Positions 35,457 through 62,931 of a stretch of 64,000 nucleotides of DNA are shown piece after piece. Each line of letters begins with the position of its first letter. The stretch's first letter is position 1. The stretch is taken from assembly GCA_020632415.1 (NCBI GenBank), contig JACKFO010000002.1, positions 228,605-292,604 on the forward strand. The letters are read 5' to 3'. The DNA is from Candidatus Nomurabacteria bacterium. Its GTDB lineage: Bacteria; Patescibacteriota; Patescibacteriia; UBA1558; GWA2-36-10. The position numbers and the translations under genes are program-made. The notes below the pieces were generated by a model. The model was not told where the DNA came from. It did not search any database and saw only the letters and a program-made list of their open reading frames with translations.

Positions 35457-35935
35457 TAATTTATTTTCCCCCCATTTTCGATATTGATAAATCTTTTTAC
35501 TTCTGGATTATTTTTATAGATTAGCTCTACTGTTCCGGTATTCGCTGTTTCTCCGCTAAATTTTGTAAAAATTAAATCTGGACTAAAACCACCAATACCG
35601 TCTGATAAACTATTTTCTGGATTTGAAATTAAAGCATTTTTTAGCTCGATTAGTTCATTTTCTTCTGCTAATTCATTGTAGCTATTGCCGCTAAAAATTA
35701 TGTAAGCATTTTCTTCTAAGTGTATGCCCCAATTTTTTTCGTTTTCAGCCGAAATAGCTGCCTGTCTAACTTCGATAATTTTACTTTTAAACTCATCAAC
35801 TTGATTAATTAACAAGACACTACTTTTCCACTGAAAAAAAATAGAATAAGCCATTCCAGTGATAATTCCAGCGATGGCCATGGTTACGATAATTTCAATA
35901 AAAGTTATGCCTTTGTTATTCATTTTATTCACCAA
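35456..35935 (-). CDS. Type IV pilin-like protein / pseudopilin
   Basis: 159 aa; prepilin signal KGITFIEIIVTMAIAGI. Confidence 0.7.
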   Translation of the reverse strand: MVNKMNNKGITFIEIIVTMAIAGIITGMAYSIFFQWKSSVLLINQVDEFKSKIIEVRQAAISAENEKNWGIHLEENAYIIFSGNSYNELAEENELIELKNALISNPENSLSDGIGGFSPDLIFTKFSGETANTGTVELIYKNNPEVKRFINIENGGKIN

Positions 35936-37133: not shown

Positions 37134-37140
37134 ATTTATT

Positions 37141-38953: not shown

Positions 38954-39439
38954 TTATTCAAGTTCATTCATTAACTCTATTTTTTGCTCTTTTACTTTTT
39001 GCCTTTGATCAAAAATGAAGCTCGCTTTTAGCTTTTTGTTGTCTAAAAAAAGCGGTAGCCAGTATTGATCATCATCCCACATTTGCTGATAAGGGATGTC
39101 TTGTAAGTCAAACCACTGCGGTTTCATTTCTTCTGTTTCAACTAACTCTCCAGACCAAGCTATTACTTTAAAAACATGAATAACCAAAGTTTTAATTAAG
39201 CTGGTATCGGGAAAATTAAAATGAATAATTGCTCTTTTTTCTAATTTCTCAGCTTTCAAGCCACTTTCTTCGTTTAATTCTCTGCCTGCTGCTTGCTCGA
39301 TTGTTTCCTCTGGCTCAAGCTTTCCACCAAAGCCATTGTAAAAACCTTGACCAAAGCCTCTTTTTTTAAAAGCAAGTAGTATTTTATCATCTTTAATCAA
39401 AAAAGCTAAAGTACGAAAATCCTCTCTCTTAGGCTCCAT
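38954..39439 (-). CDS. NUDIX hydrolase
   Basis: Nudix box GGKLEPEETIEQAAGRELNEESGL; start placed at MEPKRED (ORF-track start 39484 lies inside secA); still 11-nt overlap with secA stop. Confidence 0.7.
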   Translation of the reverse strand: MEPKREDFRTLAFLIKDDKILLAFKKRGFGQGFYNGFGGKLEPEETIEQAAGRELNEESGLKAEKLEKRAIIHFNFPDTSLIKTLVIHVFKVIAWSGELVETEEMKPQWFDLQDIPYQQMWDDDQYWLPLFLDNKKLKASFIFDQRQKVKEQKIELMNELE

Positions 39440-42182
39440 GGCATTTTTTATATTTTTTACCACTGCCGCAAGGACAAAGATCATTACGCCCCACCTTTTC
39501 TCCTTCTTCGTTTTTTGGTTTAGAAGCTAAGATTTGAGAATTTTGTTCACGTTCCTCTACTTGTTTTTGAAATGGAGAAAATCCGGCTTTTTGTTCGCTA
39601 AAATTTCTTTGAGCTTGTTGGGCTGGGTTGCTAGCTAATTTTTTGGCAACGCCAACTTTAAAAATCGAATAGACTATTTGTTTACGAATTGAGGCCAATA
39701 GATTATTAAACAAAGTAAAAGCTTCTCGTTTATATTCAACCAAAGGATCTCTTTGCCCATAGCCCTGTAGACCAATTCCTGTTCTTAATTTGTCCATGGC
39801 TGTCAAATGTTCAACCCAAAGAGTGTCAATGCTTCGTAAAACAATTCCTTTTTCGATTAATTGCATTGGTTTAAAACCACTTTCCGGCATTTCAATCGAC
39901 TGATTGATATTTTCAGTTTGAGCTAAATATTTTTCTTTAGCCAAAACAATAATATGTTGGATTAGTTCTGAACGAGTTTCATGAGAACTATCTTTTTTGA
40001 GTTTATCTAATAATTCCTTAATTTTTTCAATTTCAGTATTGTCTAAAGGAAAAATAGATTTTATAGTTTCGATAATTTCTTTGGGATCAAAATCTCCAAG
40101 TTCAGATTTTGCTAAAGTATGAAAAGAAACCACTTCTTCTATTTCTTTGTTAATTTGTTCTAAAACAAAATCTTGAGAACTACTTTCTTTTGTACTTTGA
40201 GCATTTTCAAATAACTTCAAAAAGTTTTGACGCATCTTATAAACAACTTGACGATGTTTGTTGATAATATCATCGTATTCGACCAAGTGTTTTCTGATGT
40301 CAAAATTATGACCCTCTACTTTTCTTTGGGCAGATTCAATTGAACGAGAAATTATTTTATTTTCAATCGCCGTTTCTTCATCAAGCCCTAAAGTATTCAT
40401 CACCGACTTGATTCTCTCCGAACCAAAAATACGCATCAAATCATCGTCTAAAGAAATGAAGAATTGTGAAGATCCGACGTCTCCTTGACGTCCGGCTCGA
40501 CCTCTGAGCTGATTATCAATACGACGAGATTCATGTCTTTCACTACCCAAAACATGTAAACCACCCAAAGACTTTACTTCTTCATGTTTAGCTTTATCAA
40601 ATGGTACACCGCCCAAAATAATATCCACACCACGACCAGCCATGTTGGTTGCAACAGTAATTGCTGATTTTTTACCGGCTTGAGCTAAAATTTCCGCTTC
40701 TTTGGCGTGATTTTTAGCATTTAATAAATTAAAAGGTAAACCTTCTTTTTCTAAAAATTGAGCTAACAATTCATTTTTTTCAATTGAAGCAGTACCAATC
40801 AAAACCGGCTGACCAATCTGGTGACGATAAGCTACTTCTTTGGCAATGGCCTTGAATTTGCCGCGTTCAGATTTAAAAATTTGATCTTTCAAATCTTGAC
40901 GAGAAAATGGTTTGTTAGTTGGAATGACTGTGACATCTAAACTGTAAATCTGAGCCATTTCTTCGGCCTCGGTAGCCGCTGTTCCGGTCATACCAGAAAG
41001 CTTTTCATACATTCTGAAATAATTTTGAAAAGTAATTGTGGCCAAAGTCATACTTTCTCTTTGTACTTGTACACCTTCTTTAGCTTCAATTGCTTGATGT
41101 AAACCTTCGGAATATCTGCGACCCTCCATCATTCTTCCGGTAAATTCATCGATAATCACAATTTCTCCATCACGGACAATATAGTCCTTGTCTTTGTGAT
41201 ACATTGCTTTAGCTCGAAGAGCTTGCTCTAGATGATGAATTGTTACTAAGCCGTGAGTTTCATAAATATTATCTACGCCTAATAATTTTTCTACTTTACG
41301 CACACCATCTTCAGTCAATGTTGCAGTACGCATTTTTTCATCAATATTGTAGTCAGTGTTTTCGACTAATTGGTTTACTAATTGAGAAAACTGTTGATAC
41401 TGTGAGGCTGATTCTTCGGCTGGTGCAGAAATAATCAAGGGAGTTCTTGCTTCATCAATCAAAATGCTATCCACCTCATCAACGATGGCAAAAGTTAGAT
41501 CGCGTTGAACCTGATCTTTTTTATCTTGCGCCATATTATCACGCAAATAGTCAAAACCAAATTCATTGTTAGTTCCGTAAGTAATGTCCGCCTGATAAGC
41601 TTCACTACGACTTACTGGTTTTAGATAGTCCATGACCACTTTGACTGCTTGATCTCTCACTTGGTCATCGTCTTCGGAAATATGATTTGAGTCATAAATA
41701 AAAGAAGTATTATGTTGAATAATTCCAATACTCAAACCCAAAAAATCATAAATTTGCCCCATCCAAGTCGCGTCACGTTTGGCCAAATAATCATTAACCG
41801 TTACCACGTGGACACCTTTGCCGCTTAAAGCGTTTAAGTAAATCGCCAAAGTTGAAGTTAAGGTTTTACCTTCACCGGTTTTCATTTCGGCAATTTGGCC
41901 CTGATGCAAAACAATTCCTCCTAGTAACTGCACGTCATAATGATTTTGATTTAAAGTTCTTTGCGCGGCAAGTTTAACCAAAGCAAAAGCAGGAACCAAT
42001 AAATCATTTAGATCAGTTCCGTTTTGTGCTTGCTGTTTTAATTCTAAGGATTTATTTTTTAGTTCCTGATCAGAAAGCTTTTCCCATTCAGCTTCTTGTT
42101 TTTTTATTGCTTCTATTTGAGGCTTTAAACTATCTAAGAAACGTTGATTGGCATCTCCGAATATTTTTTGTAACCAAGACAT
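39429..42182 (-). CDS. secA: Preprotein translocase subunit SecA
   Basis: 917 aa; DEAD-like motor motifs; C-terminal Zn finger CPCGSGKKYKKCHG. Confidence 0.95.
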   Translation of the reverse strand: MSWLQKIFGDANQRFLDSLKPQIEAIKKQEAEWEKLSDQELKNKSLELKQQAQNGTDLNDLLVPAFALVKLAAQRTLNQNHYDVQLLGGIVLHQGQIAEMKTGEGKTLTSTLAIYLNALSGKGVHVVTVNDYLAKRDATWMGQIYDFLGLSIGIIQHNTSFIYDSNHISEDDDQVRDQAVKVVMDYLKPVSRSEAYQADITYGTNNEFGFDYLRDNMAQDKKDQVQRDLTFAIVDEVDSILIDEARTPLIISAPAEESASQYQQFSQLVNQLVENTDYNIDEKMRTATLTEDGVRKVEKLLGVDNIYETHGLVTIHHLEQALRAKAMYHKDKDYIVRDGEIVIIDEFTGRMMEGRRYSEGLHQAIEAKEGVQVQRESMTLATITFQNYFRMYEKLSGMTGTAATEAEEMAQIYSLDVTVIPTNKPFSRQDLKDQIFKSERGKFKAIAKEVAYRHQIGQPVLIGTASIEKNELLAQFLEKEGLPFNLLNAKNHAKEAEILAQAGKKSAITVATNMAGRGVDIILGGVPFDKAKHEEVKSLGGLHVLGSERHESRRIDNQLRGRAGRQGDVGSSQFFISLDDDLMRIFGSERIKSVMNTLGLDEETAIENKIISRSIESAQRKVEGHNFDIRKHLVEYDDIINKHRQVVYKMRQNFLKLFENAQSTKESSSQDFVLEQINKEIEEVVSFHTLAKSELGDFDPKEIIETIKSIFPLDNTEIEKIKELLDKLKKDSSHETRSELIQHIIVLAKEKYLAQTENINQSIEMPESGFKPMQLIEKGIVLRSIDTLWVEHLTAMDKLRTGIGLQGYGQRDPLVEYKREAFTLFNNLLASIRKQIVYSIFKVGVAKKLASNPAQQAQRNFSEQKAGFSPFQKQVEEREQNSQILASKPKNEEGEKVGRNDLCPCGSGKKYKKCHGA

Positions 42183-46253: not shown

Positions 46254-46811
46254 TTAGCCCTTTTTTTCTTGATAAAGCTCTTGATTATAAAATTTAGCCA
46301 TAGCCATCAAAATACCGTTTTCAAAAGCTTCTTTCCTAGTAATAAAATCATTAGTTAATTCTCCGACTGTACCGTTGGTGCCCCGAACATTCAACTTAGA
46401 GAACATTTCTTCAGCTACAGGCGCTAACTCCCTACCTTTGTCCATGATCTCCACTTTGGCATATTTTGGTAATTCAATCGCTTCGCCATAAGCTAAGCTA
46501 TCTATTTGACCGTTAGTAACATAAATAGCGCCAATTAAAAAAAATTTTTCTTGGCCCAAAATATTATTTAGCCAAACTCCACCTTCAATTCCTAAATAAA
46601 AATCCGCCTCAATCCCCATTTTAATTAAATTCTGAGCACGATTATAAGCACCTTGAGTAGTTTCCTCTATGCCACGTGGTTGATCATCAACATCAGAATT
46701 GACTTTTTGACTAATGACTTTGATTTCTATTTGCGGATAAATTTTTGCAAAAGCATGTTTTACCGCTTCTACTTTTGGCTCTTGCATGGAAGCAATTGCA
46801 ACAGTAATCAT
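46254..46811 (-). CDS. Non-canonical purine NTP phosphatase, YjjX family (inosine/xanthosine triphosphatase)
   Basis: 185 aa; aligns with E. coli YjjX (..PRGIEETTQGAYNRAQN..ADFYLGIEGGV..). Confidence 0.65.
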   Translation of the reverse strand: MITVAIASMQEPKVEAVKHAFAKIYPQIEIKVISQKVNSDVDDQPRGIEETTQGAYNRAQNLIKMGIEADFYLGIEGGVWLNNILGQEKFFLIGAIYVTNGQIDSLAYGEAIELPKYAKVEIMDKGRELAPVAEEMFSKLNVRGTNGTVGELTNDFITRKEAFENGILMAMAKFYNQELYQEKKG

Positions 46812-46814
46812 ATC

Positions 46815-46845
46815 TTGACAATAAATAATTAATAATGTTTAATAT
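46815..46845 (+). promoter_or_regulatory. Strong sigma-70-type promoter TTGACA-17-TTTAAT(AT) driving the GC-rich islet
   Basis: tcTTGACAataaataattaataaTGtTTAATATaaaatc. Confidence 0.5.
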
Positions 46846-46890
46846 AAAATCTCGTTCTTTTCGGTCACTTCAAATAAGGAACAAAAGGCC

Positions 46891-47082
46891 ATGTGTCACC
46901 CCAACTATGCGGAAATCACTGAGGTCAAAAGAATTTTTGACCCCGTGGTTCGTGAAACCAGTCGCGTCAACGAAGCGCCGCAGGAGGTCAACAATCTTCT
47001 TCGAGATCCCAACTGGCATCTCTTGGACTTTCTGGCCTGCGGTGATCATCTGATTTGGATCTTGGGTAAAACCAAAGACTAG
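46891..47082 (+). CDS. Candidate small protein (63 aa) in GC-rich islet; alternatively a structured ncRNA of about 280 nt
   Basis: MCHPNYAEITEVKRIFDPVVRETSRVNEAPQEVNNLLRDPNWHLLDFLACGDHLIWILGKTKD; SD-like AAGGA 12 nt upstream; G+C about 50% against 30% flanks; bracketed by promoter and terminator. Confidence 0.3.
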   Translation: MCHPNYAEITEVKRIFDPVVRETSRVNEAPQEVNNLLRDPNWHLLDFLACGDHLIWILGKTKD

Positions 47083-47104
47083 GCGAAGCTCATGATTTTC
47101 AAAT

Positions 47105-47137
47105 CAAAGACCAACCCGACGAGGTTGGTTTTTTATT
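47105..47137. terminator. Rho-independent terminator (serves islet transcript; also fits the minus-strand NUDIX gene)
   Basis: AAAGACCAACC-cgacgag-GGTTGGTTTTTTATTT. Confidence 0.7.
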
Positions 47138-47528
47138 TAATAAACCCAAAGTGTTTGAGTGTCGGAATAATATTTAGTGCCAAATTATCTGGCAAATCAT
47201 CTATGTCAAACCATTGCCATTCTCTAATATCTTCACCGGGTTTTATCTCTCCAATTTTTTCTGCTAGCCAATGAACTAAAATCACATCGATCTTAACATC
47301 GGCCATTTCTTTAGTCGTGTAAGTAATAAATGGTCTAGGATTAGTGATTTTTATTTCAATCCCCATTTCTTCTTTGACTTCTCGAGCGGCAGCTTCTTGC
47401 AAATTTTGGTCATAATCCTCTACTTTCCCACCACAAAATTTCCAAAATTCAGTGTCGCCATGTTGGTTAAGTAATACTTTATTATCTTCGACAATAACGG
47501 GTCCAGAAGCAATGATTATTTTTTGCAT
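47133..47528 (-). CDS. NUDIX hydrolase
   Basis: 131 aa; Nudix box GGKVEDYDQNLQEAAAREVKEEMGI. Confidence 0.8.
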   Translation of the reverse strand: MQKIIIASGPVIVEDNKVLLNQHGDTEFWKFCGGKVEDYDQNLQEAAAREVKEEMGIEIKITNPRPFITYTTKEMADVKIDVILVHWLAEKIGEIKPGEDIREWQWFDIDDLPDNLALNIIPTLKHFGFIK

Positions 47529-47530
47529 AA

Positions 47531-49027
47531 TTATCTACCAATTTTAAATATCTCTGCTTTTTCCAAAGCCTTACTAGCTAGTTTGATTCTTTCAGGGGTT
47601 CTGGCATACAAAGTAAATAGACGTTCACCTTTTTTGACGTGATCTCCATATTCTTTGTTTAAATACACACCACCAAGTTTATCTGCTGGCGCGCCCAAAA
47701 TACGAGCCACGGTATTGATCATTTTATTGTCAGTAAAAGTAATGTGGCCAGATTTATTTGAATTAAAATATTTTTTATGGGCTGCTAACACTATGTCATC
47801 TGGCTCAATTTCCGGATTACCACCTTGAGCTTTGATAATTTCCTGCATCTTTTTCCAAGCCTGGCCGCTTTCTAGGGTTTTCCACGCCAAAGTCGCTCCG
47901 TGGCCTTTTTTGGCACGACCTGCAAGCTCTAGCAGCTCTCCAGCCAAATGAATCGCCTTATTGGCTAAATCTGCTGGATAATTTGCTTTTTGCTGTAAGA
48001 CTCTTAAAACATCTCTGGCTTCTAAGGCTGGGCCAACACCCTTACCAACTGGATCTTCGGTCTGGATCATAATCACTTTAATTTTGATACCAAACTTTTT
48101 AGCAATATATTTAAATTTTGTTTCCAAATCTTTGGCAGTTTTCATGTCAGGAATTTTAGTTGTCTTCCCAACCGGCATATCAATGATCAAATGAGTCACG
48201 CCAGTAGCTACTTTTTTAGCCATAATACTGACTAACATTTTGCTATAAGGTTCCAAAGAAAGTGGATAAGAAACTTTCAAAATTTTATCGTCAGCTGGTG
48301 CTAAATTTAAACCACCGCCCCAAACCAAACAGCCTTTGTGTTTTTTGACAATCTCTTTGATCTTGGCAGCTGGAAAAGATACCGGCGCTAAAACTTCCAT
48401 GGTGTCTGAAGTGCCGGCCGGCGAAGTGATTGCTCGCGAAGAAGTTTTGGGAATAGTTAATCCCAAAGAAGCAATAATTGGAATCACAACCATTGTTGTT
48501 CTATTTCCAGCTAATCCGCCAACAGAATGTTTGTCCACCACCATTCCTGGAAATTTGAAAGTTTCGCCAGTTTCCGCCATGGCCTTAGTCATGAAATATA
48601 ATTCTTCATTAGAATATTCACGCATAAAGCCAGAAGCAACGAAATAAGTTGTTTCCGTACGAGTCAAAACACCAGAAGAAATGTCAGCGAAAATTTGATA
48701 AAACTCTTGATAAGTTAATTTTTTACCCAAAAGCCTTTTCTTAATCGCCTGAACTGATGGCGCTCTCTCTAAAAAATGAATTTCCACAATAGTATTTGCC
48801 GAAATTTTGCTTTTTTCCCAAATATCTTTGTACAAGCCAATTTGTCCGGGCTTGATAGTTTTGGCAGAAGTATTTGCTTCGGCAATAATATTTTTGTCTT
48901 GCCAACAAATTTTTATTTTATCACCAGCGCGAATACCATAACGCATGGCCTCATCAACGTTTAATAAAGCAATGTTTGATTGTCCGGTTTTAATATCAAG
49001 TTTTTTTATTTTTAAATAGTAGGCCAT
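47531..49027 (-). CDS. AMP phosphorylase-like enzyme (thymidine/pyrimidine-nucleoside phosphorylase family with N-terminal extension)
   Basis: 498 aa; family motifs VDKHSVGGLAGNRTTMVV and TSSRAITSPAGTSDTMEVL; length and N-terminal extension favour AMP phosphorylase over thymidine phosphorylase. Confidence 0.6.
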   Translation of the reverse strand: MAYYLKIKKLDIKTGQSNIALLNVDEAMRYGIRAGDKIKICWQDKNIIAEANTSAKTIKPGQIGLYKDIWEKSKISANTIVEIHFLERAPSVQAIKKRLLGKKLTYQEFYQIFADISSGVLTRTETTYFVASGFMREYSNEELYFMTKAMAETGETFKFPGMVVDKHSVGGLAGNRTTMVVIPIIASLGLTIPKTSSRAITSPAGTSDTMEVLAPVSFPAAKIKEIVKKHKGCLVWGGGLNLAPADDKILKVSYPLSLEPYSKMLVSIMAKKVATGVTHLIIDMPVGKTTKIPDMKTAKDLETKFKYIAKKFGIKIKVIMIQTEDPVGKGVGPALEARDVLRVLQQKANYPADLANKAIHLAGELLELAGRAKKGHGATLAWKTLESGQAWKKMQEIIKAQGGNPEIEPDDIVLAAHKKYFNSNKSGHITFTDNKMINTVARILGAPADKLGGVYLNKEYGDHVKKGERLFTLYARTPERIKLASKALEKAEIFKIGR

Positions 49028-49029
49028 AA

Positions 49030-50778
49030 TTAAAATTTTATTACTTCTCCTGGTTTTAAAGTTTTTTCTTGACTGTTGTTTTGAGCACTAGTATTTACTG
49101 GTGGAATTTTATTTAAGTTGGGATTCATTTTTAAAGCTTCTGACAAAGAAATAAAACCATCTTCTTTGTCTTCAATCTCTTCTTTTTTGTCTGCATTTTC
49201 AGAAACAATTTTAATATTTTTTGGTGAAGGTATCTTTCCTTGTTTGGATAAATTTAAACATTCTTTACAATAAATTGGTTTGTTCGGATCTGGATCAAAG
49301 TTGATTTCCGTCTCTTTGCCACAAAAAGAACAAATCACGTCTTTTTTAAAACCTTTATTTTTAGATTTCGATCTTTTGTTATCTTTATTCTCTTTTGATT
49401 TATTTGTGGTTTCTGCAGTCTTTTCTTTTGGTTTTGAATTTAAAGTAGAGTTAGCATTTGTTTTTGCTTTAGCTTTTACTTCTTCATCAATTTCTGACTT
49501 ATTTTCACTCCAACGAGTAATTTTTTCTTCAATTAATTCCCTTGGTTTAGCATAACGCTCTCGTGAAACAGAAATTACCTTACTTCTCACCTCAGGATTG
49601 CTATAAGAAACATCTATTGGTGGCAAAGTTTTCGCAGAAAAAGCCTCAGAGGCTACGCCATCGATCATTAGCTTCAAATAAACTTCATATTTAGTCAAAT
49701 TGACGAGATCAGTTTGCGTAAAATGTGGAAAAAATTCTTTTTCTAAAAATTCAGCATCAGTAGCGCCTACCCGAAAAGAAACTAGAGTCCCGACATTACC
49801 AAAAACCGCAGCTTGCACAGCTTCTTCCACTTGTTCAATGTATTGGTGGGCTAAAATTAAATTTAAACGATATTTTCTAGCTTCTGACAAAATGCCAGCA
49901 AAAGATTCAGTAGCAAAATTTTGAAACTCATCGACATAAAGATAAAAATCTTTACGTTCATTTTCAGGAATATTTACACGACTCATTGCCGCTAGTTGCA
50001 ATTTGGTAATCATCATTGCTCCTAACAAAGCTGAATTGTCCTCGCCAACTCTACCTTTGGCTAAATTTAAAAGTAAAATCTTTTGACCATCCATAATTTC
50101 TCGCATCGCAAAAGAAGATTTTACTTGACCCAAAATATTTCGAACTAAAGCAGAAGATAAAAATCTGCCAACCTTATTTTGAATCGGGGCAATTGCTTCA
50201 CTTTGAAAACGATCAGGATATTTAGAATATTCATCCACCCAAAATGATCTAACTACTGGGTCAGTGACTTTTTCTAAAACTCGATTACGAAAGGATTTGT
50301 CTACCAAAATTCTCATGATCCCCAACAAAGTTGAACCAGGATATTCAAGCAAAGCCGAAATCGCATGATGCAAAACATACTCTAAACGAGGTCCCCAGGA
50401 ATCAGCCCAAATTTTCTTGAAAACACCGATCAAACCAGAAACCACCAAATGTCTTTCAGCTTCATTGACGTTTTCCAAAACATTGAAAGCAATCGGAAAA
50501 TCCAAATCAGAAGGATTAAAATAAACAACGTCATTGATTCGAGATGCTGGAATAAAATCAATCACCTTTTCTACCAAATCACCATGAGGATCAATCACAC
50601 AAACACCATGACCGGCTTGAATATCCTGAATAATCATGTTCTCTAGAGCCGTTGATTTGCCCATGCCAGTTTTTCCAATAAAATACATATGACGACGTCG
50701 ATCGTCAGTTTTGATTCCAAATTTAACTTTGGAATTACGGAAATTAGTTTGAGCAAAAAAATTAATATCTTGACTCAT
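49030..50778 (-). CDS. FtsK-HerA superfamily P-loop ATPase, TraD/VirD4(T4CP)/HerA-like, with C-terminal Lys-rich linker and zinc ribbon
   Basis: 582 aa; Walker A GKTGMGKS, DPHGD motif, Walker B YLYVDEFQNF, ARKYRLNLILAHQ; C-terminal CSFCGKE...CKEC; paralogous to the C-terminal half of 60490-62931. Confidence 0.6.
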   Translation of the reverse strand: MSQDINFFAQTNFRNSKVKFGIKTDDRRRHMYFIGKTGMGKSTALENMIIQDIQAGHGVCVIDPHGDLVEKVIDFIPASRINDVVYFNPSDLDFPIAFNVLENVNEAERHLVVSGLIGVFKKIWADSWGPRLEYVLHHAISALLEYPGSTLLGIMRILVDKSFRNRVLEKVTDPVVRSFWVDEYSKYPDRFQSEAIAPIQNKVGRFLSSALVRNILGQVKSSFAMREIMDGQKILLLNLAKGRVGEDNSALLGAMMITKLQLAAMSRVNIPENERKDFYLYVDEFQNFATESFAGILSEARKYRLNLILAHQYIEQVEEAVQAAVFGNVGTLVSFRVGATDAEFLEKEFFPHFTQTDLVNLTKYEVYLKLMIDGVASEAFSAKTLPPIDVSYSNPEVRSKVISVSRERYAKPRELIEEKITRWSENKSEIDEEVKAKAKTNANSTLNSKPKEKTAETTNKSKENKDNKRSKSKNKGFKKDVICSFCGKETEINFDPDPNKPIYCKECLNLSKQGKIPSPKNIKIVSENADKKEEIEDKEDGFISLSEALKMNPNLNKIPPVNTSAQNNSQEKTLKPGEVIKF

Positions 50779-50783
50779 ATTTT

Positions 50784-52295
50784 TTAACCAGTAGGCAAAT
50801 TAGTTGGCGGCTCACCTTTTTTATCAGCCAACTGCTTTGTAATTTGTTTTTGTTTAAATTCTTCTTTATTTTTAGCAAATTTTTCTTCAAAATAATCATT
50901 ATCTAAATTGACATTAAAATCGGGCTTTTTATTTAGCTGAATTTTTAAATCCTGACTAACCCGATCGTTATCATTGCCACTCATAGAAATTGGCAAACCA
51001 GAAGGAGCTTCGCCTTTTTTGGTATCAGTACGCTTTAGAAGCGGTGTTCTGACTTCAATTCCTGGGAAGTGCCAAAGACTCGCAAGCTCTTCTGTATTTA
51101 AAATAAAGGTTTTATACCCAGCTACTGTACTTCTGCCTTTATAAGCTTTGATAATTTTGGCTTTTCGTTTTTTATTGCGATATTTAGTAAACCAATAATT
51201 TGTCGAAGTCTTAGTTTTTGCGTCAGGCTTAAAACTATTTAAATCAAGGGTAGAAAATTGTTTAATTGCTCCAAAAACCGAAGAAACTACTCGATTAGGA
51301 TTATAGTCTTCATTTGGCGACAAATAAACTAAACGAATTTTACAGTCAAAGCCTATTTTACCAGCTTTATTTTCAATTGCTTCTAAGGTTCCCTTTTCTC
51401 CTGGAGTCAAGTGAAGCATCAAGCTTGGCATGTCGTCTTTTTTCTTTTCCGCTTCCTTCCAAAGTGGAAAAATAAATTCGCCAATATTATCCATGGCATT
51501 GGTAATAAAATCAACAGACTGCGTAGCTTTATTTCCACCGCTGTCAGGCATTTTTTTACCAGCAATTTTATAAGCTGCTTCCTCGCTTTTTTTGATCCAA
51601 TCCACTCCGGTTGGGCGGACAATAATTTGAAGCCAAACTTGTTCACCAATGTGAATTTTACTCATCGTCTCCAGCAAAGCTGCTAGCGGATCTTTGTATT
51701 CTCCAGAAACCTTATCCTCAAAAGCTGGGTAAGTACGAATCGGCAAAGCATCTTCTTTAACCAAGACAACTTCTGTGCCCCAAATATTATAATCTTCGTC
51801 AGGATATTCTTCTGGCGCCCAATTAACATAATCATCAACTTCAGTAATTTCAGCATCCGGATACTGAGAATAAATCGAACTTTCGATCACATCGCGGTAT
51901 TGCACTGGAGTACGAATCAAAAACTGCACATAGCCATCGATACTAACGATTTCAAAAGAAAAAGCTAATTGAAAAATACCTTTAACATATTGGTCAACTT
52001 TATTAATATTAGCATGCGCTCCAGAAACGGTAGAAAATAAACCCTCAACTGCCTTTGGTGTTTGTTCATGTTCTTTAGGGATATCAACGGCCAACAAAAC
52101 AAATTTATTTGTGTCAAACCATTTATTCTGTTTTTCCATGATCCAAACCTCATAACCTTGAGTGATCAAGATCCAAGCCAAAGGAATCCAACCGCCATGA
52201 GCGATAATATACCACAAAGCAAAAATAGGCCCCTTGTCAGCAGCAATAAATAATGGTGATAAATCAATCACTAAATTTAAAAATTCTATCTGCAT
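50784..52295 (-). CDS. Membrane-anchored partner protein; homologous to the N-terminal half of the 813-aa fused ATPase
   Basis: 503 aa; two N-terminal TM helices; segments align with residues about 60-400 of the 60490-62931 protein. Confidence 0.5.
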   Translation of the reverse strand: MQIEFLNLVIDLSPLFIAADKGPIFALWYIIAHGGWIPLAWILITQGYEVWIMEKQNKWFDTNKFVLLAVDIPKEHEQTPKAVEGLFSTVSGAHANINKVDQYVKGIFQLAFSFEIVSIDGYVQFLIRTPVQYRDVIESSIYSQYPDAEITEVDDYVNWAPEEYPDEDYNIWGTEVVLVKEDALPIRTYPAFEDKVSGEYKDPLAALLETMSKIHIGEQVWLQIIVRPTGVDWIKKSEEAAYKIAGKKMPDSGGNKATQSVDFITNAMDNIGEFIFPLWKEAEKKKDDMPSLMLHLTPGEKGTLEAIENKAGKIGFDCKIRLVYLSPNEDYNPNRVVSSVFGAIKQFSTLDLNSFKPDAKTKTSTNYWFTKYRNKKRKAKIIKAYKGRSTVAGYKTFILNTEELASLWHFPGIEVRTPLLKRTDTKKGEAPSGLPISMSGNDNDRVSQDLKIQLNKKPDFNVNLDNDYFEEKFAKNKEEFKQKQITKQLADKKGEPPTNLPTG

Positions 52296-52398
52296 TAGAT
52301 TATCTTATCTTTATTATACATTATTATTGCAAGTTTTTAAAGAATAAGGCAATACAAAAACATCCTCTTAAAATAAAAGGATGTTTTTAAAATTTAAT

Positions 52399-53502
52399 TT
52401 AAGCATTTTTGAGGAAATATCTACCTTTACTATCTCTTTCAAAGCGGTCTTTATTCATCAGAGCCAAAGTAATCGTCGTTTCTTTAATCATTCTTTTCTT
52501 TAAAACTTCAGCGATAATTTCTTTTTTACTCAATGGTCTATCTTGTTCGATTAAAATTTCAGCAATTACATCTGCAACGACGCCTGGTTTATAACCCCAT
52601 TCTTTTAAGGCATAAATACCACGACCAACCAAGACATATTTATCATCCAAAATTAATTCATTATGAATAGTTGCAGGATAAGCCTTTCTTTTATCAAAGG
52701 ATTTTGAGTTAATAATTTCAGCGATCTCTGTAAAATGTAATGGTTTATTTTCTTTTTTCAAGACAATGTAGATTTTGTCATTCATTCTCTTCGGGGTAAT
52801 ACTTGGCCATTCAGTTAAACCCCATTCTTGATAAGGATTGTCTTTAATTTTCTTGGTAATATCCAAAAAGTTGACTACCATTTTTTCAGTCAGATCATCG
52901 TTAGAGGTAAAAAAATCAGCTTCTGAAACATTTTTAACTAATTTTTCAAGCTCTAATGCTTCTTTGTATTCTAAAATTAATTGGCGTAAATTTTCAATAA
53001 CCTCTTCAAAAAAATCAAGAGAAGCTTCTGGGGTTTTCCAAAAACTATGATTATGTTTGTTTTCTTTGACAAAATGAAAACGATGATTTAAAAGTTGACT
53101 CAAGACAAAATTAATCGCAGCTTTGTTTTCATCAGTTACACCAGGAACCATCAATAATTCTTTAATCAAACTTTCTTCAGACATCATGCCGCCATGCTCA
53201 GCTAAAATAGCGTTGGCAATATCTTCAATTTGTTTGATAAAATTTTCATCAAAACTTTTACTGATTTTTTTCAAAGCACTATTTTCAATTTGACGCACTC
53301 TTTCACGAGTGATTTTGTATTGACCACCGATGTCTTCTAGGGTTTTTTTATCAGCTCCAGCCAAACCATGTCGCATTTTCAAAATCTCTTGCTCACGTTC
53401 GGAAAGCAGGCCTAAAATACGCTCGACAGTAGCGCTGGGATTAAATTCGGCTAAATGAGATAACTGTTGTGCAGTCATTACTTGATCTAAAATTGAACTC
53501 AT
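52399..53502 (-). CDS. Protein with N-terminal sigma-70 region 4 (HTH) domain and about 280-aa uncharacterised C-terminal domain
   Basis: 367 aa; residues about 30-80 LSEREQEILKMRHGLAGADKKTLEDIGGQYKITRERVRQIENSALKKI match region 4.2; no regions 2 or 3 detectable. Confidence 0.55.
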   Translation of the reverse strand: MSSILDQVMTAQQLSHLAEFNPSATVERILGLLSEREQEILKMRHGLAGADKKTLEDIGGQYKITRERVRQIENSALKKISKSFDENFIKQIEDIANAILAEHGGMMSEESLIKELLMVPGVTDENKAAINFVLSQLLNHRFHFVKENKHNHSFWKTPEASLDFFEEVIENLRQLILEYKEALELEKLVKNVSEADFFTSNDDLTEKMVVNFLDITKKIKDNPYQEWGLTEWPSITPKRMNDKIYIVLKKENKPLHFTEIAEIINSKSFDKRKAYPATIHNELILDDKYVLVGRGIYALKEWGYKPGVVADVIAEILIEQDRPLSKKEIIAEVLKKRMIKETTITLALMNKDRFERDSKGRYFLKNA

Positions 53503-53615: not shown

Positions 53616-54509
53616 TTATGAATTTTTGTTCCACCAAACCAAAAGTGGTGAGGCAATGAAAATCGAAGAATAAGTACCAACAATCACGCCTAAAATCAAA
53701 GCCAAAACGAAATATTGAATGCTCTGACCACCAAAAATATAGATTGCTAGCAAGACCAAAAGCGTAGTTAAGGAAGTATTAATCGAGCGAATAATAGTTT
53801 GATTAACACTAATATTTACAATTTCTGTAAAGCTTTGGTTATGAATTTTAAATAGATTTTCTCGAACTCGATCAAAAGTAACGATCGTATCATGAACAGA
53901 AAAGCCCAAAATCGTCAACAAAGCAGTTACAAATAAAGTGTCAATTTCCACTCCTAAGAAATAACCCAGGATGGCAAACACGCCGGTAACGATTAAAATG
54001 TCATGCACTAAAGCAGCGATTGCAGCCAAACCATATTTCCAAGAAGCAACTGGTTTAGAGACCTTTCTAAAGGCATAAGCAATATAAGCAACAATGAAAA
54101 TCAAAACAATAATAATTGCCTCAATGGCTTTACTCTTTAATTCTTGACCAATAGTTGGACCAACAGATTCAAATCTTTGTTCTTCCACTAAACCAGAGTC
54201 GGGAGCGCTAGATTTTAGCTGATTAAGAACGACTTGATGTTTATCTTCATCGACATTTTCAAAACGTAAGATAAAAATGTTATCACCACTTGGTTGAACT
54301 TTGACATTGTTTAAATCTATCTGCGCCAAACTCTCCTCTATTTGAGTAATTTCTGGACGATTGTTTTCATAAGATATCTCTAACAAACTACCACCGGTAA
54401 AATCAATTCCTAACTTCAAACCCCAAATTACTAGAGCAAGAATACTGATGGCCATTAGGAATCCAGAAATTGAAAACCAAATTTTTTTTGAATCAATAAT
54501 ATTATACAT
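53616..54509 (-). CDS. secF: Protein-export membrane protein SecF
   Basis: 297 aa; SecF N-terminus KKIWFSISGFLMAISI..GIDFTGG; six TM segments. Confidence 0.85.
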   Translation of the reverse strand: MYNIIDSKKIWFSISGFLMAISILALVIWGLKLGIDFTGGSLLEISYENNRPEITQIEESLAQIDLNNVKVQPSGDNIFILRFENVDEDKHQVVLNQLKSSAPDSGLVEEQRFESVGPTIGQELKSKAIEAIIIVLIFIVAYIAYAFRKVSKPVASWKYGLAAIAALVHDILIVTGVFAILGYFLGVEIDTLFVTALLTILGFSVHDTIVTFDRVRENLFKIHNQSFTEIVNISVNQTIIRSINTSLTTLLVLLAIYIFGGQSIQYFVLALILGVIVGTYSSIFIASPLLVWWNKNS

Positions 54510-54513
54510 AATT

Positions 54514-56181
54514 TTATTCTCCTTTTTTCTTTAAACCAAACAACCACAATTTATCTTCTATTTTCTTATTAACCATAATTCTTAAAAATGTTCTGGTTAC
54601 GGTAATTGCTGAGAACATGGAAATCAAAATACCAATCGCCAAGGTAATTGCAAAACCTTTGACAATAGAAGTTCCAAACCAGGCTAAAATCAAACAAGTA
54701 ATGATCGAAGAAATATTTGAGTCACGAATTGAGCTCCAGGCTCTAACAAAGCCATTTTCAATAGCTGAAGTCAAACTTCTGCCATCTCTTAATTCTTCTT
54801 TGGTTCTTTCAAAAATCAAAACATTAGCGTCCACTGCCATACCAACCGAAAGAATAAAACCGGCAACACCAGCCAAAGTCATTGTCACTGGAATAATTTC
54901 AAATAAAGCTAAAGTAAGCAATGAATAAACTCCTAAAGCCAAGACAGCAACTAAGCCTGGTAAACGATAATAAAATAGCATGAATAAAGCAGCGGCAATC
55001 AAACCAATAATACCGGCCATCAAGCTTTTTTGTACTGAACTAGCGCCCAAAGAAGCGCCTACGGTCTGCTGACTAACTAAAGTAATTGGCACTGGTAAAG
55101 CACCGGAATTCAAACGACGAACCATATCTTTGGCCTCTGAAGCATTGAAATTTCCAGAAATTACTGCATTTCCATCTTTAATCGCCTCTTGAACAGTTGG
55201 AGCAGAAACTAAAAATCCATCCAAAAAGATAGCGACCGGCTTTCCGACATTAGCGCCGGTAATTTCAGCAAACATATCTTTACCATCAGAATCAAACTCT
55301 AAACCAACTAAGGGTTGATTTGTATTTTGATCAAACTCTAAATAAGCTCTTTTTAGATTTTTACCGCCAAGTTCAGTGTTTTCCCAAATGGTATTGCCCA
55401 AATCAGCGTTTTCATTTTTGATCAAAATATGAGCAGCATGCACTTCTACTTCGCCACTTTCATTTACTCTCTCTTCAATTTTTTTGATAATATGATAACC
55501 AAATTGAGAGGTAACTAATTCTTTGGAGATTTCCCCACTCTTTAGTTGATCAAAAATAGCTTGATCAAATTCAGGAACAAACTCACCACGAGTAACCCAT
55601 GGTAAATCACCACCGTTTTGAGCTGAACCCAAGTCTTCGCTGTATTCTTGAGCAAGTTGAGCAAAGTCAGCGCCAGCTAAAGCCTTGGCTAAAATTTCTT
55701 CAGCTAATGCCCGAGGCTCATTTACAGCCTCCTCATCAGTATTAACTTCAACTATTGGCGCAACACCCTGGGTTTTAAACTCTAACAAAGGAGTCTCACC
55801 GATCATCTTAATTGCCTCATTGACATCTTTGACACCGGCAAGCTCAACAATAATGCGATAATTATCGCCGCTATAATTAGTTTGAATCGTTGGTTCAGAA
55901 ACACCATAAGCGTTTACTCGACGCTCAATCACATCTCTGACGCCTTCGACTGATTCTTTCTTATCAGAATCAGCAAAAGCAGTTACATCGGCCTCATAAA
56001 CTAAATGAGTTCCGCCTTGTAAATCTAAGCCCAAATGAACTTTAAATCTACTAAACCAACCAAAGCCTTGTGGCCAAACTACCAAAGCAGTAAAAATTGT
56101 TAAAAGCACAATTCCTAAAAAAGTAGCACGTACTTGATTTTGACTCACCTGTTTTACACGAAAAATAGTCTTTTTTTGCAT
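54514..56181 (-). CDS. secD: Protein-export membrane protein SecD with inserted parvulin-type PPIase domain in the periplasmic P1 region
   Basis: 555 aa; SecD signature LGLDLQGGTHLVY; residues about 150-240 form a complete PpiC/parvulin domain; C-terminal six TM segments. Confidence 0.8.
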   Translation of the reverse strand: MQKKTIFRVKQVSQNQVRATFLGIVLLTIFTALVVWPQGFGWFSRFKVHLGLDLQGGTHLVYEADVTAFADSDKKESVEGVRDVIERRVNAYGVSEPTIQTNYSGDNYRIIVELAGVKDVNEAIKMIGETPLLEFKTQGVAPIVEVNTDEEAVNEPRALAEEILAKALAGADFAQLAQEYSEDLGSAQNGGDLPWVTRGEFVPEFDQAIFDQLKSGEISKELVTSQFGYHIIKKIEERVNESGEVEVHAAHILIKNENADLGNTIWENTELGGKNLKRAYLEFDQNTNQPLVGLEFDSDGKDMFAEITGANVGKPVAIFLDGFLVSAPTVQEAIKDGNAVISGNFNASEAKDMVRRLNSGALPVPITLVSQQTVGASLGASSVQKSLMAGIIGLIAAALFMLFYYRLPGLVAVLALGVYSLLTLALFEIIPVTMTLAGVAGFILSVGMAVDANVLIFERTKEELRDGRSLTSAIENGFVRAWSSIRDSNISSIITCLILAWFGTSIVKGFAITLAIGILISMFSAITVTRTFLRIMVNKKIEDKLWLFGLKKKGE

Positions 56182-60489: not shown

Positions 60490-62931
60490 TTAGACTTTTA
60501 AACGCCTTACCACTTCTTCTTCGATTAACTTCCTATCTCGTCCATATTTTAAGGCTGACAATTCTTTGATTGCCTGGGCTAATTCAAAATGACCTTTTTC
60601 TGGTTTGATTGGTTGAAAATTAAAAGCTGGAGTGACTGTATTGTCAATCAATAATTTTACATAACAAGTATATTTTGGCATATTGATCAAATCATATTCT
60701 GAGACTACTGGAGCCATTTGTTTGGCAATAATCTCTGAATCTTCTACGCCAATTCGGAAAGAAACCAAAGTTCCAACATTACCAAAAATAGCATCTCTGG
60801 TTCTAGTATCTCCGCTTTTAACTAACTGAGCAATAAACTGATGAGCTAAAATTAAATTTAATTTATATTTTCTGGCTTCTGACAAAATAACCGAAACTGT
60901 ATCAGTAATAAAATTTTGAAACTCATCAATGTATAGATAAAAGTCCTTTCTGTCTTCTTCGGCAGTGTCTACCCGACTCATGGCAGCAAATAATAATTTT
61001 CCAATCACCACCATTCCTAGTAAACTACTATTTGTTTCACCGATCTTACCTTTGGATAGATTCAATAAAACAATTTTATTTGAATCCATCGCCTCTCGGA
61101 AATTAAAAGCACTTTTACTTTGAGCGATAATCGGTCGAATCAAATCATTGGAAATAAACGGAGTTAATTTACTAGTAATATAAGGAACCATGTTAGCTAA
61201 GGCTGCATCGCCGCCAGCTTTTTGCGCCTCTTTTTCCCAAAAATCTTTGACAAAAACATTTTTAACAGTCTCTAATTTTTTCTTTCGATACTCAGCGTCT
61301 GCTAAAATTTTTGGAATTTCTAATAGCGTCGCTCCGCTTTCTTTATCATCCATAACCAGCAACATGGCATTGCGCATGTATTGTTCAAACATCGGACCAC
61401 CGGTAGCTTTTAAGTCGTATAGTTTATCAAAAATTGCAATCATTTCGTTGATCACAAAAGTTTTTTGCTCTTCCGTTTCATATTCCAACATGTTCATTCC
61501 TAATGGTCGTTGGGAATTTGCCGGATCAAACAAAATCACATCTTCTGCTCTTTCTTTTGGAATTTGAGTCAAAATAACCTCTACCAAATCACCATGTGGA
61601 TCAACTACGCAGACTCCCTTGCCAGCTTTAATGTCCTGAATAATTAAACTTTCCTGAAAAACAGATTTTCCGGTTCCAGTCTGACCAATGACATACATAT
61701 GGCGGCGGCGATCCTCTGACTTGATCCTAACTAGGGTCTCTCGACCACGATAAGAGCTTTTGCCGAGTATTAAGCCATCTTGGGGCATATTGCTTGGTGG
61801 TGGGGCCTTAACAGCCTCCAACCAAGCAATGTTTGGAGTTTCGGTGGTCGGTAAAGGCAAATGAATGACCGAAACCATTTCTTCTGAATTCAAAAGAAAA
61901 CTATTTTTATCAATAAATTGTCGGAAAATAAACTGATCAATCAATTTGTCAGATTTTTTAGGAAGCAAAGCTTCGAAGCTATTACCAAATTCATAAATAT
62001 TGTATTGCGCATAACTATTCAAAATATCTTCCAAAACTGCCTCTGATCTTTCTTTGCTATTGCTAGAAACAACCACTCTTAGATTGACATCTAAGGCTGG
62101 TTTAGAGTTTTTATCTTCTAAAAGCTTACTAATTTCCTGTTCTTTAGCAGAACTTTGATGTTTATTTTCTAATGGAAATTGTTGATGATCTTTATTTTTG
62201 TCTGGACTAGCAAAATTAAAAAAACTTCCTAAAAATGAGAAAAACCCAAAAATTGATTTTCCACTACCCGCTTTTGAAACCGCAGTTTGCAAACTCTCAC
62301 CATCTTGCATGTTTCTAACAATTTTCCTTGCTCTGCTATGCCAAGCCTTTGGCGCGGATTTAAAAACATACTGAATGGAAGCTGACTCATGTTCGTTCAG
62401 CTTACTCAAAGCATTGGTAATACTCTCCAAAGGATCATTTTCAAAAACATGGTAAGTTTTGATCGGTAAAGTAGAATCTTTTTTTAATTTCAAAGCACCT
62501 GCTTTAATCACACTGTTAGCTTCAAAAATATTGTAATCAGAAATTTCTTCAAAATAAACTTTTGGATAAACTGATTGAAATTGTTGTAAAAAAAATTCTT
62601 TTAATTTTTTAGGGACGGCCACGTAAAAATAAATAATCCCCTTAAAGGCTACCATTTCTAAAGAAAAAATTCTTTCTTTTTTCAAAGATTTTTCAGATTT
62701 CAAACCAGCTAGAGCAGTAAAAAGATTTTCAATTCGACCCAAAGCGCCATTAATATAATCTTTATTTAATTCATCCTGATCTTTTTTGGTATATCTAGGA
62801 ACTTTGAGCAAAAGCATTTCTAGTTCAGGATTTTTATTAATATTTTTTTTATACCAAAAAAATAAAATTACTAAGGCAATGGCCAGTAATAAAAAAATGC
62901 TGATTAAAATAATAGCTTCTAGCGAAATCAT
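60490..62931 (-). CDS. Fused membrane-anchored FtsK-HerA superfamily ATPase (TraD/VirD4/HerA-like); single-gene equivalent of the 50784-52295 plus 49030-50778 pair
   Basis: 813 aa; N-terminal TM; middle region homologous to the 503-aa protein; C-terminal ATPase with GQTGTGKS, DPHGD, YLYIDEFQNF, ARKYKLNLILAHQ. Confidence 0.6.
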   Translation of the reverse strand: MISLEAIILISIFLLLAIALVILFFWYKKNINKNPELEMLLLKVPRYTKKDQDELNKDYINGALGRIENLFTALAGLKSEKSLKKERIFSLEMVAFKGIIYFYVAVPKKLKEFFLQQFQSVYPKVYFEEISDYNIFEANSVIKAGALKLKKDSTLPIKTYHVFENDPLESITNALSKLNEHESASIQYVFKSAPKAWHSRARKIVRNMQDGESLQTAVSKAGSGKSIFGFFSFLGSFFNFASPDKNKDHQQFPLENKHQSSAKEQEISKLLEDKNSKPALDVNLRVVVSSNSKERSEAVLEDILNSYAQYNIYEFGNSFEALLPKKSDKLIDQFIFRQFIDKNSFLLNSEEMVSVIHLPLPTTETPNIAWLEAVKAPPPSNMPQDGLILGKSSYRGRETLVRIKSEDRRRHMYVIGQTGTGKSVFQESLIIQDIKAGKGVCVVDPHGDLVEVILTQIPKERAEDVILFDPANSQRPLGMNMLEYETEEQKTFVINEMIAIFDKLYDLKATGGPMFEQYMRNAMLLVMDDKESGATLLEIPKILADAEYRKKKLETVKNVFVKDFWEKEAQKAGGDAALANMVPYITSKLTPFISNDLIRPIIAQSKSAFNFREAMDSNKIVLLNLSKGKIGETNSSLLGMVVIGKLLFAAMSRVDTAEEDRKDFYLYIDEFQNFITDTVSVILSEARKYKLNLILAHQFIAQLVKSGDTRTRDAIFGNVGTLVSFRIGVEDSEIIAKQMAPVVSEYDLINMPKYTCYVKLLIDNTVTPAFNFQPIKPEKGHFELAQAIKELSALKYGRDRKLIEEEVVRRLKV

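Follow-up and report, generated by a model that had tools for sequence, protein, structure and literature searches.

A probable split VirB4-like ATPase pair next to an AMP phosphorylase gene in a Nomurabacteria genome: common function or inherited gene order?

In the genome of a Candidatus Nomurabacteria bacterium (Patescibacteriota; assembly GCA_020632415.1) four consecutive minus-strand genes encode a membrane protein, a P-loop ATPase of the TrwB/VirB4 type, an AMP phosphorylase and a NUDIX hydrolase. They are part of a stretch of 64,000 nucleotides (nt) of contig JACKFO010000002.1 (positions 228,605 to 292,604), which was analysed here as a whole and is called the window in the following. 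Why should a translocase-type ATPase be encoded directly beside enzymes of nucleotide degradation? A previous sequence-only reading of this DNA proposed that the ATPase handles nucleic acid whose breakdown products are then salvaged, or else that the genes form a defence module. Our analysis leads to a different answer, which we hold with moderate confidence: the adjacency is mainly inherited synteny in a streamlined genome, and the four genes represent two functional units rather than one. The first unit would consist of the DUF8128 protein and the ATPase, the second of the AMP phosphorylase together with a lineage-specific NUDIX hydrolase. The genes are as follows.

50784 to 52295, minus strand: DUF8128 (PF26449) protein, 503 amino acids (aa); open reading frame (ORF) call
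49030 to 50778, minus strand: TrwB/VirB4-type P-loop ATPase, 582 aa; ORF call, Pfam and NCBIfam
47531 to 49027, minus strand: archaeal-type AMP phosphorylase (AMPpase, DeoA of the pentose-bisphosphate/AMP pathway), 498 aa; Pfam, NCBIfam and PDB match
47133 to 47528, minus strand: small NUDIX hydrolase, 131 aa; PF00293

Gene order around the four genes

The four ORFs lie exactly where the sequence-only reading had placed them, with gaps of 5 nt between the DUF8128 and ATPase genes, 2 nt between the ATPase and AMPpase genes and 2 nt between the AMPpase and NUDIX genes. This close spacing is uninformative on function, because gaps of 2 to 5 nt are ordinary here: among the 52 junctions between same-strand genes of the window, 25 measure 5 nt or less (median 6.5 nt), and 96% of the sequence is coding. 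The genes encoding LysRS, SerRS and alanine racemase, unrelated to each other, are joined just as tightly.

Relatives of the ATPase were collected by a scan of one genome per species, which gave at least 595 relatives, and 80 loci (numbered with the prefix L) were kept. These loci have a common gene order of the Patescibacteria type. As seen from tblastn synteny and gene tables, the conserved order is SecD-SecF-sigma-70-region-4/HARE-HTH protein (Sig/HARE)-DUF8128-ATPase, and in the window its upstream part consists of the following genes.

54514 to 56181, minus strand: SecD; tblastn synteny, Pfam SecD_SecF_C in AMPpase-centred loci
53616 to 54509, minus strand: SecF; tblastn synteny, start of the conserved block together with SecD
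52399 to 53502, minus strand: protein with sigma-70 region 4 (residues 30 to 81) and HARE-HTH domain (residues 244 to 302), 367 aa; Pfam

In 62 of 78 loci the ATPase gene has the DUF8128 gene directly upstream. No other upstream neighbour of this pair is as constant as the Sig/HARE protein (position -2 in 51 of 75 loci); the same order of Sig/HARE and pair was also found in AMPpase-centred loci, and the Sig/HARE protein may belong with the pair. SecF and SecD occupy positions -3 and -4 in 21 loci. Many records titled "uncultured Gammaproteobacteria", "Bdellovibrionales" or "Saccharibacteria" (L001, L003, L007, L018, L023-L025, L035, L069 and others) exhibit the SecDF-Sig/HARE-DUF8128-ATPase synteny, too, and their titles are probably mislabelled.

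Downstream of the ATPase, the next gene in 74 loci (window included) encodes an RNase_T exonuclease in nine cases, a GT2 protein in seven, the AMPpase in five, MnmA in four, the ribose-1,5-bisphosphate (R15P) isomerase e2b2 in three, the alanyl-tRNA synthetase AlaRS in three and other proteins in fewer. The AMPpase is the immediate neighbour only in the window and in L001-L004. In L008, L009 and L012, e2b2 and then RuBisCO follow the ATPase directly; the AMPpase gene comes right after RuBisCO in L009 and after one intervening HAD-like gene in L012, and the contig of L008 ends past RuBisCO. AMP-pathway genes were thereby found behind the ATPase in 8 of the 74 ATPase-centred loci, and besides the window only L003 and L004, two close relatives, have the full four-gene order.

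A second sample was centred on the AMPpase and comprised 12 homologues with 60 to 71% identity and annotated neighbours. Here the ATPase pair is located directly upstream of the AMPpase in L084 and L088 and upstream of e2b2-RuBisCO-AMPpase in L086 and L091, and it is absent from the other eight loci. MnmA-AlaRS lies downstream of the AMPpase in 6 of the 12 loci, usually continuing with IF1-S13-S11-S4-RpoA-L17. A PilM/FtsA-like gene was found upstream in three loci, and pentose-phosphate genes surround the AMPpase in one. The AMP cassette would accordingly sit where two conserved housekeeping blocks meet, SecD-SecF-Sig/HARE-DUF8128-ATPase to one side and MnmA-AlaRS-IF1-S13-S11-S4-RpoA-L17 to the other, and such a position explains the adjacency without any shared function. 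Where the junction breaks, the AMPpase stays beside MnmA-AlaRS no less often than beside the ATPase. The neighbourhood of AMPpase, a tRNA thiolase and a tRNA synthetase would suggest a functional link to nobody. Moreover, the largely vertical descent reported for deoA and e2b2 in the candidate phyla radiation (CPR; PMC6389311) fits a retained ancestral position. In the lineage of the window, e2b2 and RuBisCO no longer adjoin the AMPpase.

Several points weigh against this two-unit reading. On the same strand as the ATPase and behind it, AMP-pathway genes occur down to 57 to 61% AMPpase identity (L008, L009, L012, L086, L091), a persistence beyond that of random packing. In a subgroup of 13 loci the ATPase has no DUF8128 upstream, and most members of the subgroup (L020, L024, L027, L032, L033, L038, L045, L050, L066, L073, L076; ATPase at about position 10000 in most) have the order NrdR-NrdD-NrdG-small transmembrane protein-ATPase-RNase_T exonuclease-GT2-DivIC-D-Ala-D-Ala carboxypeptidase (Peptidase_S11/DPBB)-FtsE-like ABC ATPase-FtsX, so that the ATPase is again surrounded by genes of nucleotide and nucleic-acid metabolism. 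The median identity in the same loci was 61% for the ATPase and 45 to 55% for SecD, SecF, AlaRS and MnmA, an advantage which is inflated because the loci were picked by ATPase similarity. Finally, the fold of the ATPase does not discriminate VirB4 from VirD4 or DptH. By conserved gene order, which had been proposed as a check, the coupling fails in most relatives: the complete order does not reach beyond L003 and L004, and AMP-pathway genes accompany a minority of ATPases. The arrangement is nevertheless not pure packing, as the order ATPase, e2b2, RuBisCO, AMPpase recurs in four loci (L009, L012, L086, L091), and a weak thematic link is therefore conceivable.

According to the coupling proposal itself, the membrane-bound ATPase pair imports or processes nucleic acid, and the NUDIX hydrolase and the AMPpase feed the nucleotides into R15P salvage. 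We regard this as unlikely, although it has several points in its favour. The ATPase is followed by AMPpase or by e2b2-RuBisCO(-AMPpase) in 8 of 74 and 4 of 12 loci, in every case on the same strand; in the second architecture, NrdR-NrdD-NrdG lie upstream and an RNase_T exonuclease downstream; and the ATPase belongs to a clade of DNA or substrate translocases. CPR bacteria cannot synthesise nucleotides de novo, and S. epibionticum can grow without comEC, the only competence gene tested (PMC10633639), which leaves room for another nucleotide supply route in Patescibacteria. On the other hand, AMP-pathway genes are missing near the ATPase in about 90% of its loci, the ATPase is missing from 8 of the 12 AMPpase loci, and the AMPpase is tied equally or more often to MnmA-AlaRS, genes without a role in salvage. 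Furthermore, the NUDIX gene is confined to the window and two close relatives, and the operon contains no channel or nuclease partner. An equally frequent neighbourhood, in which the ATPase precedes GT2-DivIC-penicillin-binding protein-FtsE-FtsX, points to a role in division or the envelope instead.

A more far-reaching version would make the split pair the motor of a Patescibacteria-specific uptake or processing of host-derived nucleic acid. Its recurrent placement beside e2b2-RuBisCO-AMPpase, beside the Nrd genes and beside RNase_T would then reflect a real route of supply, in which the imported polymer yields nucleotides, ribose-bisphosphate carbon and deoxynucleoside triphosphates. We consider this a clearly improbable scenario. 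Patescibacteria cannot make nucleotides, and if the linkage to AMP-salvage and ribonucleotide-reductase genes were functional, a membrane motor would be tied to nucleotide scavenging. If it is not, the locus is a caution that a spacing of 2 to 5 nt in genomes with 96% coding sequence says nothing on common function.

The ATPase pair as a probable split machine

The first two genes of the cluster are linked to each other. In the same window a single-chain paralogue of both proteins is encoded:

60490 to 62931, minus strand: single-chain paralogue of DUF8128 plus ATPase, 813 aa; Pfam and hmmsearch

This protein consists of a transmembrane helix, a DUF8128-like domain (residues 67 to 387) and an ATPase domain (387 to 809), and has no zinc ribbon. 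It was recognised by the DUF8128 profile (E 3e-24) and the ATPase profile (458 bits), and Pfam TrwB_AAD_bind, T4SS-DNA_transf and DUF87 match its residues 400 to 750. A similar fusion was found at L063 (11200-13695). Since the fused paralogue exists, the DUF8128 protein and the ATPase are functionally linked, and the ATPase pair described by the sequence-only reading is real. The occurrence of a split and a fused version in one genome fits the approximately two homologues of the type IV coupling protein (T4CP) per Patescibacteria genome reported in PMC12102498. In the loci with Nrd genes, the small transmembrane protein (about 90 to 115 aa) may replace DUF8128 as the anchor.

The 503-aa protein has the precomputed annotation PF26449 (DUF8128); the local Pfam copy gave no match, and literature searches for DUF8128 and PF26449 found no paper. 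The DUF8128 profile matched the representatives of 3123 clusters formed at 50% identity, with E ≤1e-30 for 1070 of these. In the AlphaFold model (predicted local distance difference test score 72), an N-terminal hydrophobic helix (residues 23 to 62) precedes an alpha/beta domain, in agreement with the membrane anchoring claimed before. Searches against PDB sequences gave only chance-level S6 matches for DUF8128 and, for the ATPase profile, a TrwB match confined to the surroundings of the P-loop. Because of these weak results folds were compared. The model of the cytoplasmic DUF8128 domain, which is followed by a disordered tail, matches TrwK/VirB4 by fold. The N-terminal domain expected of a VirB4 would thereby be carried by the DUF8128 protein encoded ahead of the ATPase, and judging from the model this cytoplasmic domain may correspond to the N-terminal half of VirB4.

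The disordered tail contains two PPxNLP-type motifs, copies of a (K)KxEAPSxLP/KGEPPTNLP type (residues 424 to 435 and 492 to 503), one after the folded domain and the other at the extreme C-terminus. An equivalent motif, APPPSNMP, is situated in the 813-aa paralogue at the joint with the ATPase. This position at the joint suggests that the motif of DUF8128 is a docking peptide.

The 582-aa ATPase matches Pfam TrwB_AAD_bind, DUF87, TraG-D_C and zf_Tbcl_2, in agreement with the TraD/VirD4/HerA-like ATPase with C-terminal zinc ribbon named by the sequence-only reading. Behind its core (about residues 1 to 425) come a linker rich in K and E, a treble-clef zinc ribbon of the form CxxC-x17-CxxC (residues 480 to 509) and a conserved C-terminal tail. 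Walker A (GKTGMGKS), Walker B and the four cysteines of the zinc ribbon are invariant in 16 ATPase homologues. Zinc binding in vitro of this zinc-ribbon family is known only for small M. mazei proteins (PMC12704099). Past the ribbon, the tail (within residues 425 to 582) exhibits a conserved "ISLxEAL" helix (about 544 to 548) and a terminal "PGEVIKF", separated by low-complexity linkers rich in K, E and N. The protein is soluble: it begins 34 residues ahead of Walker A and has no hydrophobic or transmembrane segment.

In the fold comparison the ATPase scored 28.3 with the C-terminal domain of T. pseudethanolicus VirB4 (4ag5), 28.3 with the C-domain of DptH, 26.0 with TrwB, 23.6 with DotL, 21.6 with Cag-beta, 21.4 with HerA, 18.9 with EccC and 16.8 with FtsK. 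The RecA-like C-terminal domain with Walker A and B typical of VirB4 is present. Sequence models are nearer to TrwB/TraD than to VirB4: no CagE_TrbE_VirB match was obtained and VirB4_plasma reached 23.6 bits compared to a cut-off of 590.

Does the ATPase represent an ordinary coupling protein (VirD4/TraD/TrwB) of a Patescibacteria type IV secretion system (T4SS) or of a conjugative element? The nucleotide-binding domain with all-alpha insertion and the matches to family hidden Markov models (HMMs; Pfam TrwB_AAD_bind and TraG-D_C, partial NCBIfam TraD) are those of a T4CP, and genes of this sort have been classed as T4CP homologues in the literature (PMC12102498). All NCBIfam TraD, TrbC and VirB4 scores were far under their cut-offs, however, and the N-terminal transmembrane domain of a T4CP is absent from the ATPase chain. 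The membrane helix is located on the DUF8128 protein, and this partner resembles VirB4 and not the T4CP membrane domain. Neither virB4 nor VirB3-, VirB6- or VirB8-type genes, a relaxase or any other T4SS gene turned up in the scan of 38 window ORFs or in the loci. A count over 2918 Patescibacteria genomes gave 5713 VirD4-like homologues, no more than 148 of which lie near virB4; where T4SS genes were essential, the T4CP homologue was not, and the authors regard the Patescibacteria VirD4-like genes as possibly exapted (PMC12102498). The fixed housekeeping neighbourhood and a conservation above that of SecD or AlaRS argue in the same direction, and we regard an ordinary T4CP as very unlikely. 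Taken together, the fold matches, the fused paralogues and the position of DUF8128 directly upstream of the ATPase support a VirB4-like motor split into two polypeptides. They do not support a classical coupling protein, as the ATPase chain has no transmembrane segment and T4SS and relaxase genes are missing nearby.

The same motor might serve as a DNA translocase in division and chromosome segregation, i.e. as a functional analogue of FtsK/SpoIIIE, with an incidental AMPpase neighbour. The membrane anchor and the housekeeping-level conservation are in line with this, as are GT2, DivIC, D-Ala-D-Ala carboxypeptidase/DPBB, an FtsE-like ABC ATPase and FtsX, which follow the ATPase in about 21 of 74 loci. 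It is contradicted by the lack of a Pfam FtsK_SpoIIIE match and of a gamma (KOPS-reading) domain in the ATPase, and by structural matches to VirB4 and TrwB which are much better than that to FtsK. In addition, a T4CP homologue, which could be either paralogue, was reported to be non-essential in S. epibionticum. We consider a division translocase distinctly improbable.

By analogy with VirB4, TrwB and HerA, the membrane helix of the DUF8128 protein would anchor a ring-forming ATPase at the inner face of the membrane, and ATP hydrolysis by the pair would drive the movement or remodelling of a polymer, with DNA as the most likely one. Contacts to the substrate or a partner may be made by the zinc ribbon and the conserved tail at the C-terminus. 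As the pair appears to be phylum-wide and is strongly conserved and located among housekeeping genes, we infer that it has a core cellular function and does not serve conjugation or defence.

AMP phosphorylase, NUDIX hydrolase and adjacent features

The 498-aa protein matches Pfam Glycos_trans_3N, Glycos_transf_3 and PYNP_C, all over the cut-offs (NP-II fold). Among the NCBIfam models, ARCH_P_rylase (TIGR02645, 525.7 bits, cut-off 434.6) and PRK04350 (560.5 bits, cut-off 434) were clearly exceeded, and AMP_phos (TIGR03327) was missed by 0.8 bit (534.2 bits, cut-off 535). The best PDB match was the AMPpase of T. kodakarensis (4ga5/4ga6, 342 bits, residues 6 to 486). The N-terminal extension is present, too: the alignment to 4ga5 begins at query residue 6 and target residue 4, whereas alignments to pyrimidine-nucleoside and thymidine phosphorylases begin at about residue 92 or later, the extension of about 85 residues being absent from those enzymes. 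Pyrimidine-nucleoside phosphorylases reached at most 144 bits. An ordinary thymidine phosphorylase was rejected as an identity (T_phosphoryl 129 bits, cut-off 570.7, compared to 342 bits for 4ga5), and close homologues are named "AMP phosphorylase" in their source annotations. The assignment to the AMP-phosphorylase type with N-terminal extension, made earlier, is therefore borne out by the TIGR02645, PRK04350 and 4ga5 scores. As a member of this family the enzyme would convert a nucleoside monophosphate, such as AMP, CMP or UMP, and phosphate to the base and R15P.

Neither e2b2 (IF-2B, R15P isomerase) nor RuBisCO is encoded in the 64-kb window, as judged from Pfam scans of 38 ORFs and tblastn with CPR e2b2 and RuBisCO, which agrees with the sequence-only reading. 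Both genes adjoin the AMPpase in the relatives L009, L012, L083, L086 and L091 (57 to 65% AMPpase identity). In one CPR locus (L082, 4931-6268) a gene encoding a beta-CASP/metallo-beta-lactamase RNase-like protein separates RuBisCO from AMPpase, and its product might be a nuclease that supplies the AMP pathway.

The NUDIX hydrolase matches PF00293 with 68.3 bits (cut-off 21.1). Its Nudix box (consensus GX5EX7REUXEEXGU) is recognisable by eye from REVKEEMGI, but the stretch from the conserved G to RE is one residue longer than in the consensus. The best partial matches were to the MutT, NudG, NudB and NudI types (at most 39 bits, all far under the cut-offs). No substrate-specific equivalog model reached its cut-off (NAD diphosphatase gave 16 bits), and the models thus lend no support to the ADP-ribose or NDP-X role proposed by the sequence-only reading. 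The protein may hydrolyse a nucleoside diphosphate derivative or a nucleoside triphosphate. Among the ATPase-centred loci, a NUDIX gene follows the AMPpase only in the window, L003 and L004, and in the AMPpase-centred sample in none of the 12.

The HerA-like ATPase and the nucleotide-degrading enzymes might also form a nucleotide-based module of anti-phage defence. In PADLOC the ATPase weakly matched mad8 (46 bits) and HerA models (at most 33 bits), the NUDIX hydrolase weakly matched the candidate PDC-S07 (53 bits), and DUF8128 and the AMPpase matched nothing. The ATPase pair appears to be phylum-wide, and it is highly conserved and fixed at a locus among SecDF, tRNA and ribosomal genes, which is the opposite of a defence island, and the AMPpase is an enzyme of a characterised metabolic pathway, the partner genes of which adjoin it in other lineages. 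A defence function is hardly credible under these circumstances. With nothing but weak single-gene PADLOC matches and a fixed housekeeping locus, this interpretation was rejected.

Two further features bear on the transcription of the four genes.

47106 to 47133, both strands: G+C-rich terminator-like hairpin, directly 3' of the NUDIX stop; sequence and stem scan
52313 to 52341, minus strand: promoter-like hexamers TTTAAA-17-TATAAT in the 103-nt gap 5' of the DUF8128 gene; weak

The stems of the hairpin comprise 11 bp on the plus strand and, at 47129-47110, 8 bp on the minus strand; it is likely to be the 3' end of the transcription unit. The hairpin after the last gene and the weak promoter-like site before the first make co-transcription plausible, and the four genes probably form a single transcription unit. 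In the region, promoter-like sites numbered 48 compared to 40 ± 6 in shuffled sequence, and with a number so near to the shuffled level the scan gave no evidence for or against internal promoters.

The hairpin lies in a gap of 321 nt past the NUDIX gene (46812-47132), which is unusually long for this genome and contains small plus-strand ORFs (46835-47053 and 46891-47082). No Rfam family was found in this gap, the gap and its small ORFs had no homologues in the 80 loci, and a 63-aa ORF in it had no Pfam match. Just downstream of the NUDIX gene, an NTPase_I-T gene (DUF84, ITPase/XTPase-like; 46254-46811, minus strand) is the third gene in a row for a nucleotide house-cleaning or salvage enzyme; it had no tblastn counterpart in any of the 80 loci. 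Genes of a type IV pilus or type II secretion system, encoding PilC-like (T2SSF) and PilB-like (T2SSE and MshEN) proteins, and SecA are located 7 to 13 kb downstream on the same strand (35925-38874 and 39429-42182, both minus). Elsewhere in the window, two proteins of 602 aa (17407-19215, minus strand) and 479 aa (23400-24839, plus strand) matched no Pfam family at E ≤1e-6.

Comparison with known systems

The AMPpase of the window is equal in length to T. kodakarensis TK0353 (4ga4-4ga6) and to the deoA product of CPR bacteria (Wrighton 2016, Jaffe 2018), with the same three domains and the N-terminal extension. In contrast to the CPR deoA cassettes, e2b2 and RuBisCO are not adjacent in the window and its closest relatives, where the NUDIX gene follows instead.

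Compared to TrwB, VirD4 and TraD, the ATPase lacks the N-terminal transmembrane domain and a relaxase or T4SS context, and possesses a VirB4-like partner domain and a zinc ribbon. The similarity to EccE/EccC of type VII secretion (ESX) is one of fold only, as no other ESX components or WXG substrates were seen. Archaeal Ced/Ted systems for DNA import employ the VirB4/HerA-like proteins CedB and CedD and are an example of a VirB4-clade ATPase in housekeeping DNA exchange outside classical conjugation. The likeness to our pair is a functional analogy only: the NCBIfam CedD match of the ATPase is weak (30 bits compared to a cut-off of 600, P-loop region only), and no CedA-like polytopic channel protein is encoded near the pair.

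VirB4/TrwK (7o42, 4ag5) differs from the pair in that the two halves are encoded here by separate genes, the 813-aa paralogue keeping them fused. Here, VirB3/6/8 and other T4SS genes are missing nearby, and a C-terminal CxxC-x17-CxxC zinc ribbon is added. The pair is furthermore a core gene family across Patescibacteria and not part of a mobile or secretion locus. Because it is set apart from T4CPs by membrane domain and T4SS context, and from VirB4 by sequence models and context, this orphan, split VirB4-like ATPase with zinc ribbon is not fully accommodated by known families. A DUF8128 with VirB4-like fold and VirD4-like Patescibacteria ATPases, occurring as a split pair and as a fused paralogue in the same genome, offer a structural hypothesis for these proteins. 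The AMPpase is of a known kind, the NUDIX hydrolase is ordinary and the four-gene coupling is mostly an effect of synteny. The part worth attention is the ATPase pair, which, being phylum-wide and of translocase architecture without secretion-system partners, is a conserved unknown of high priority.

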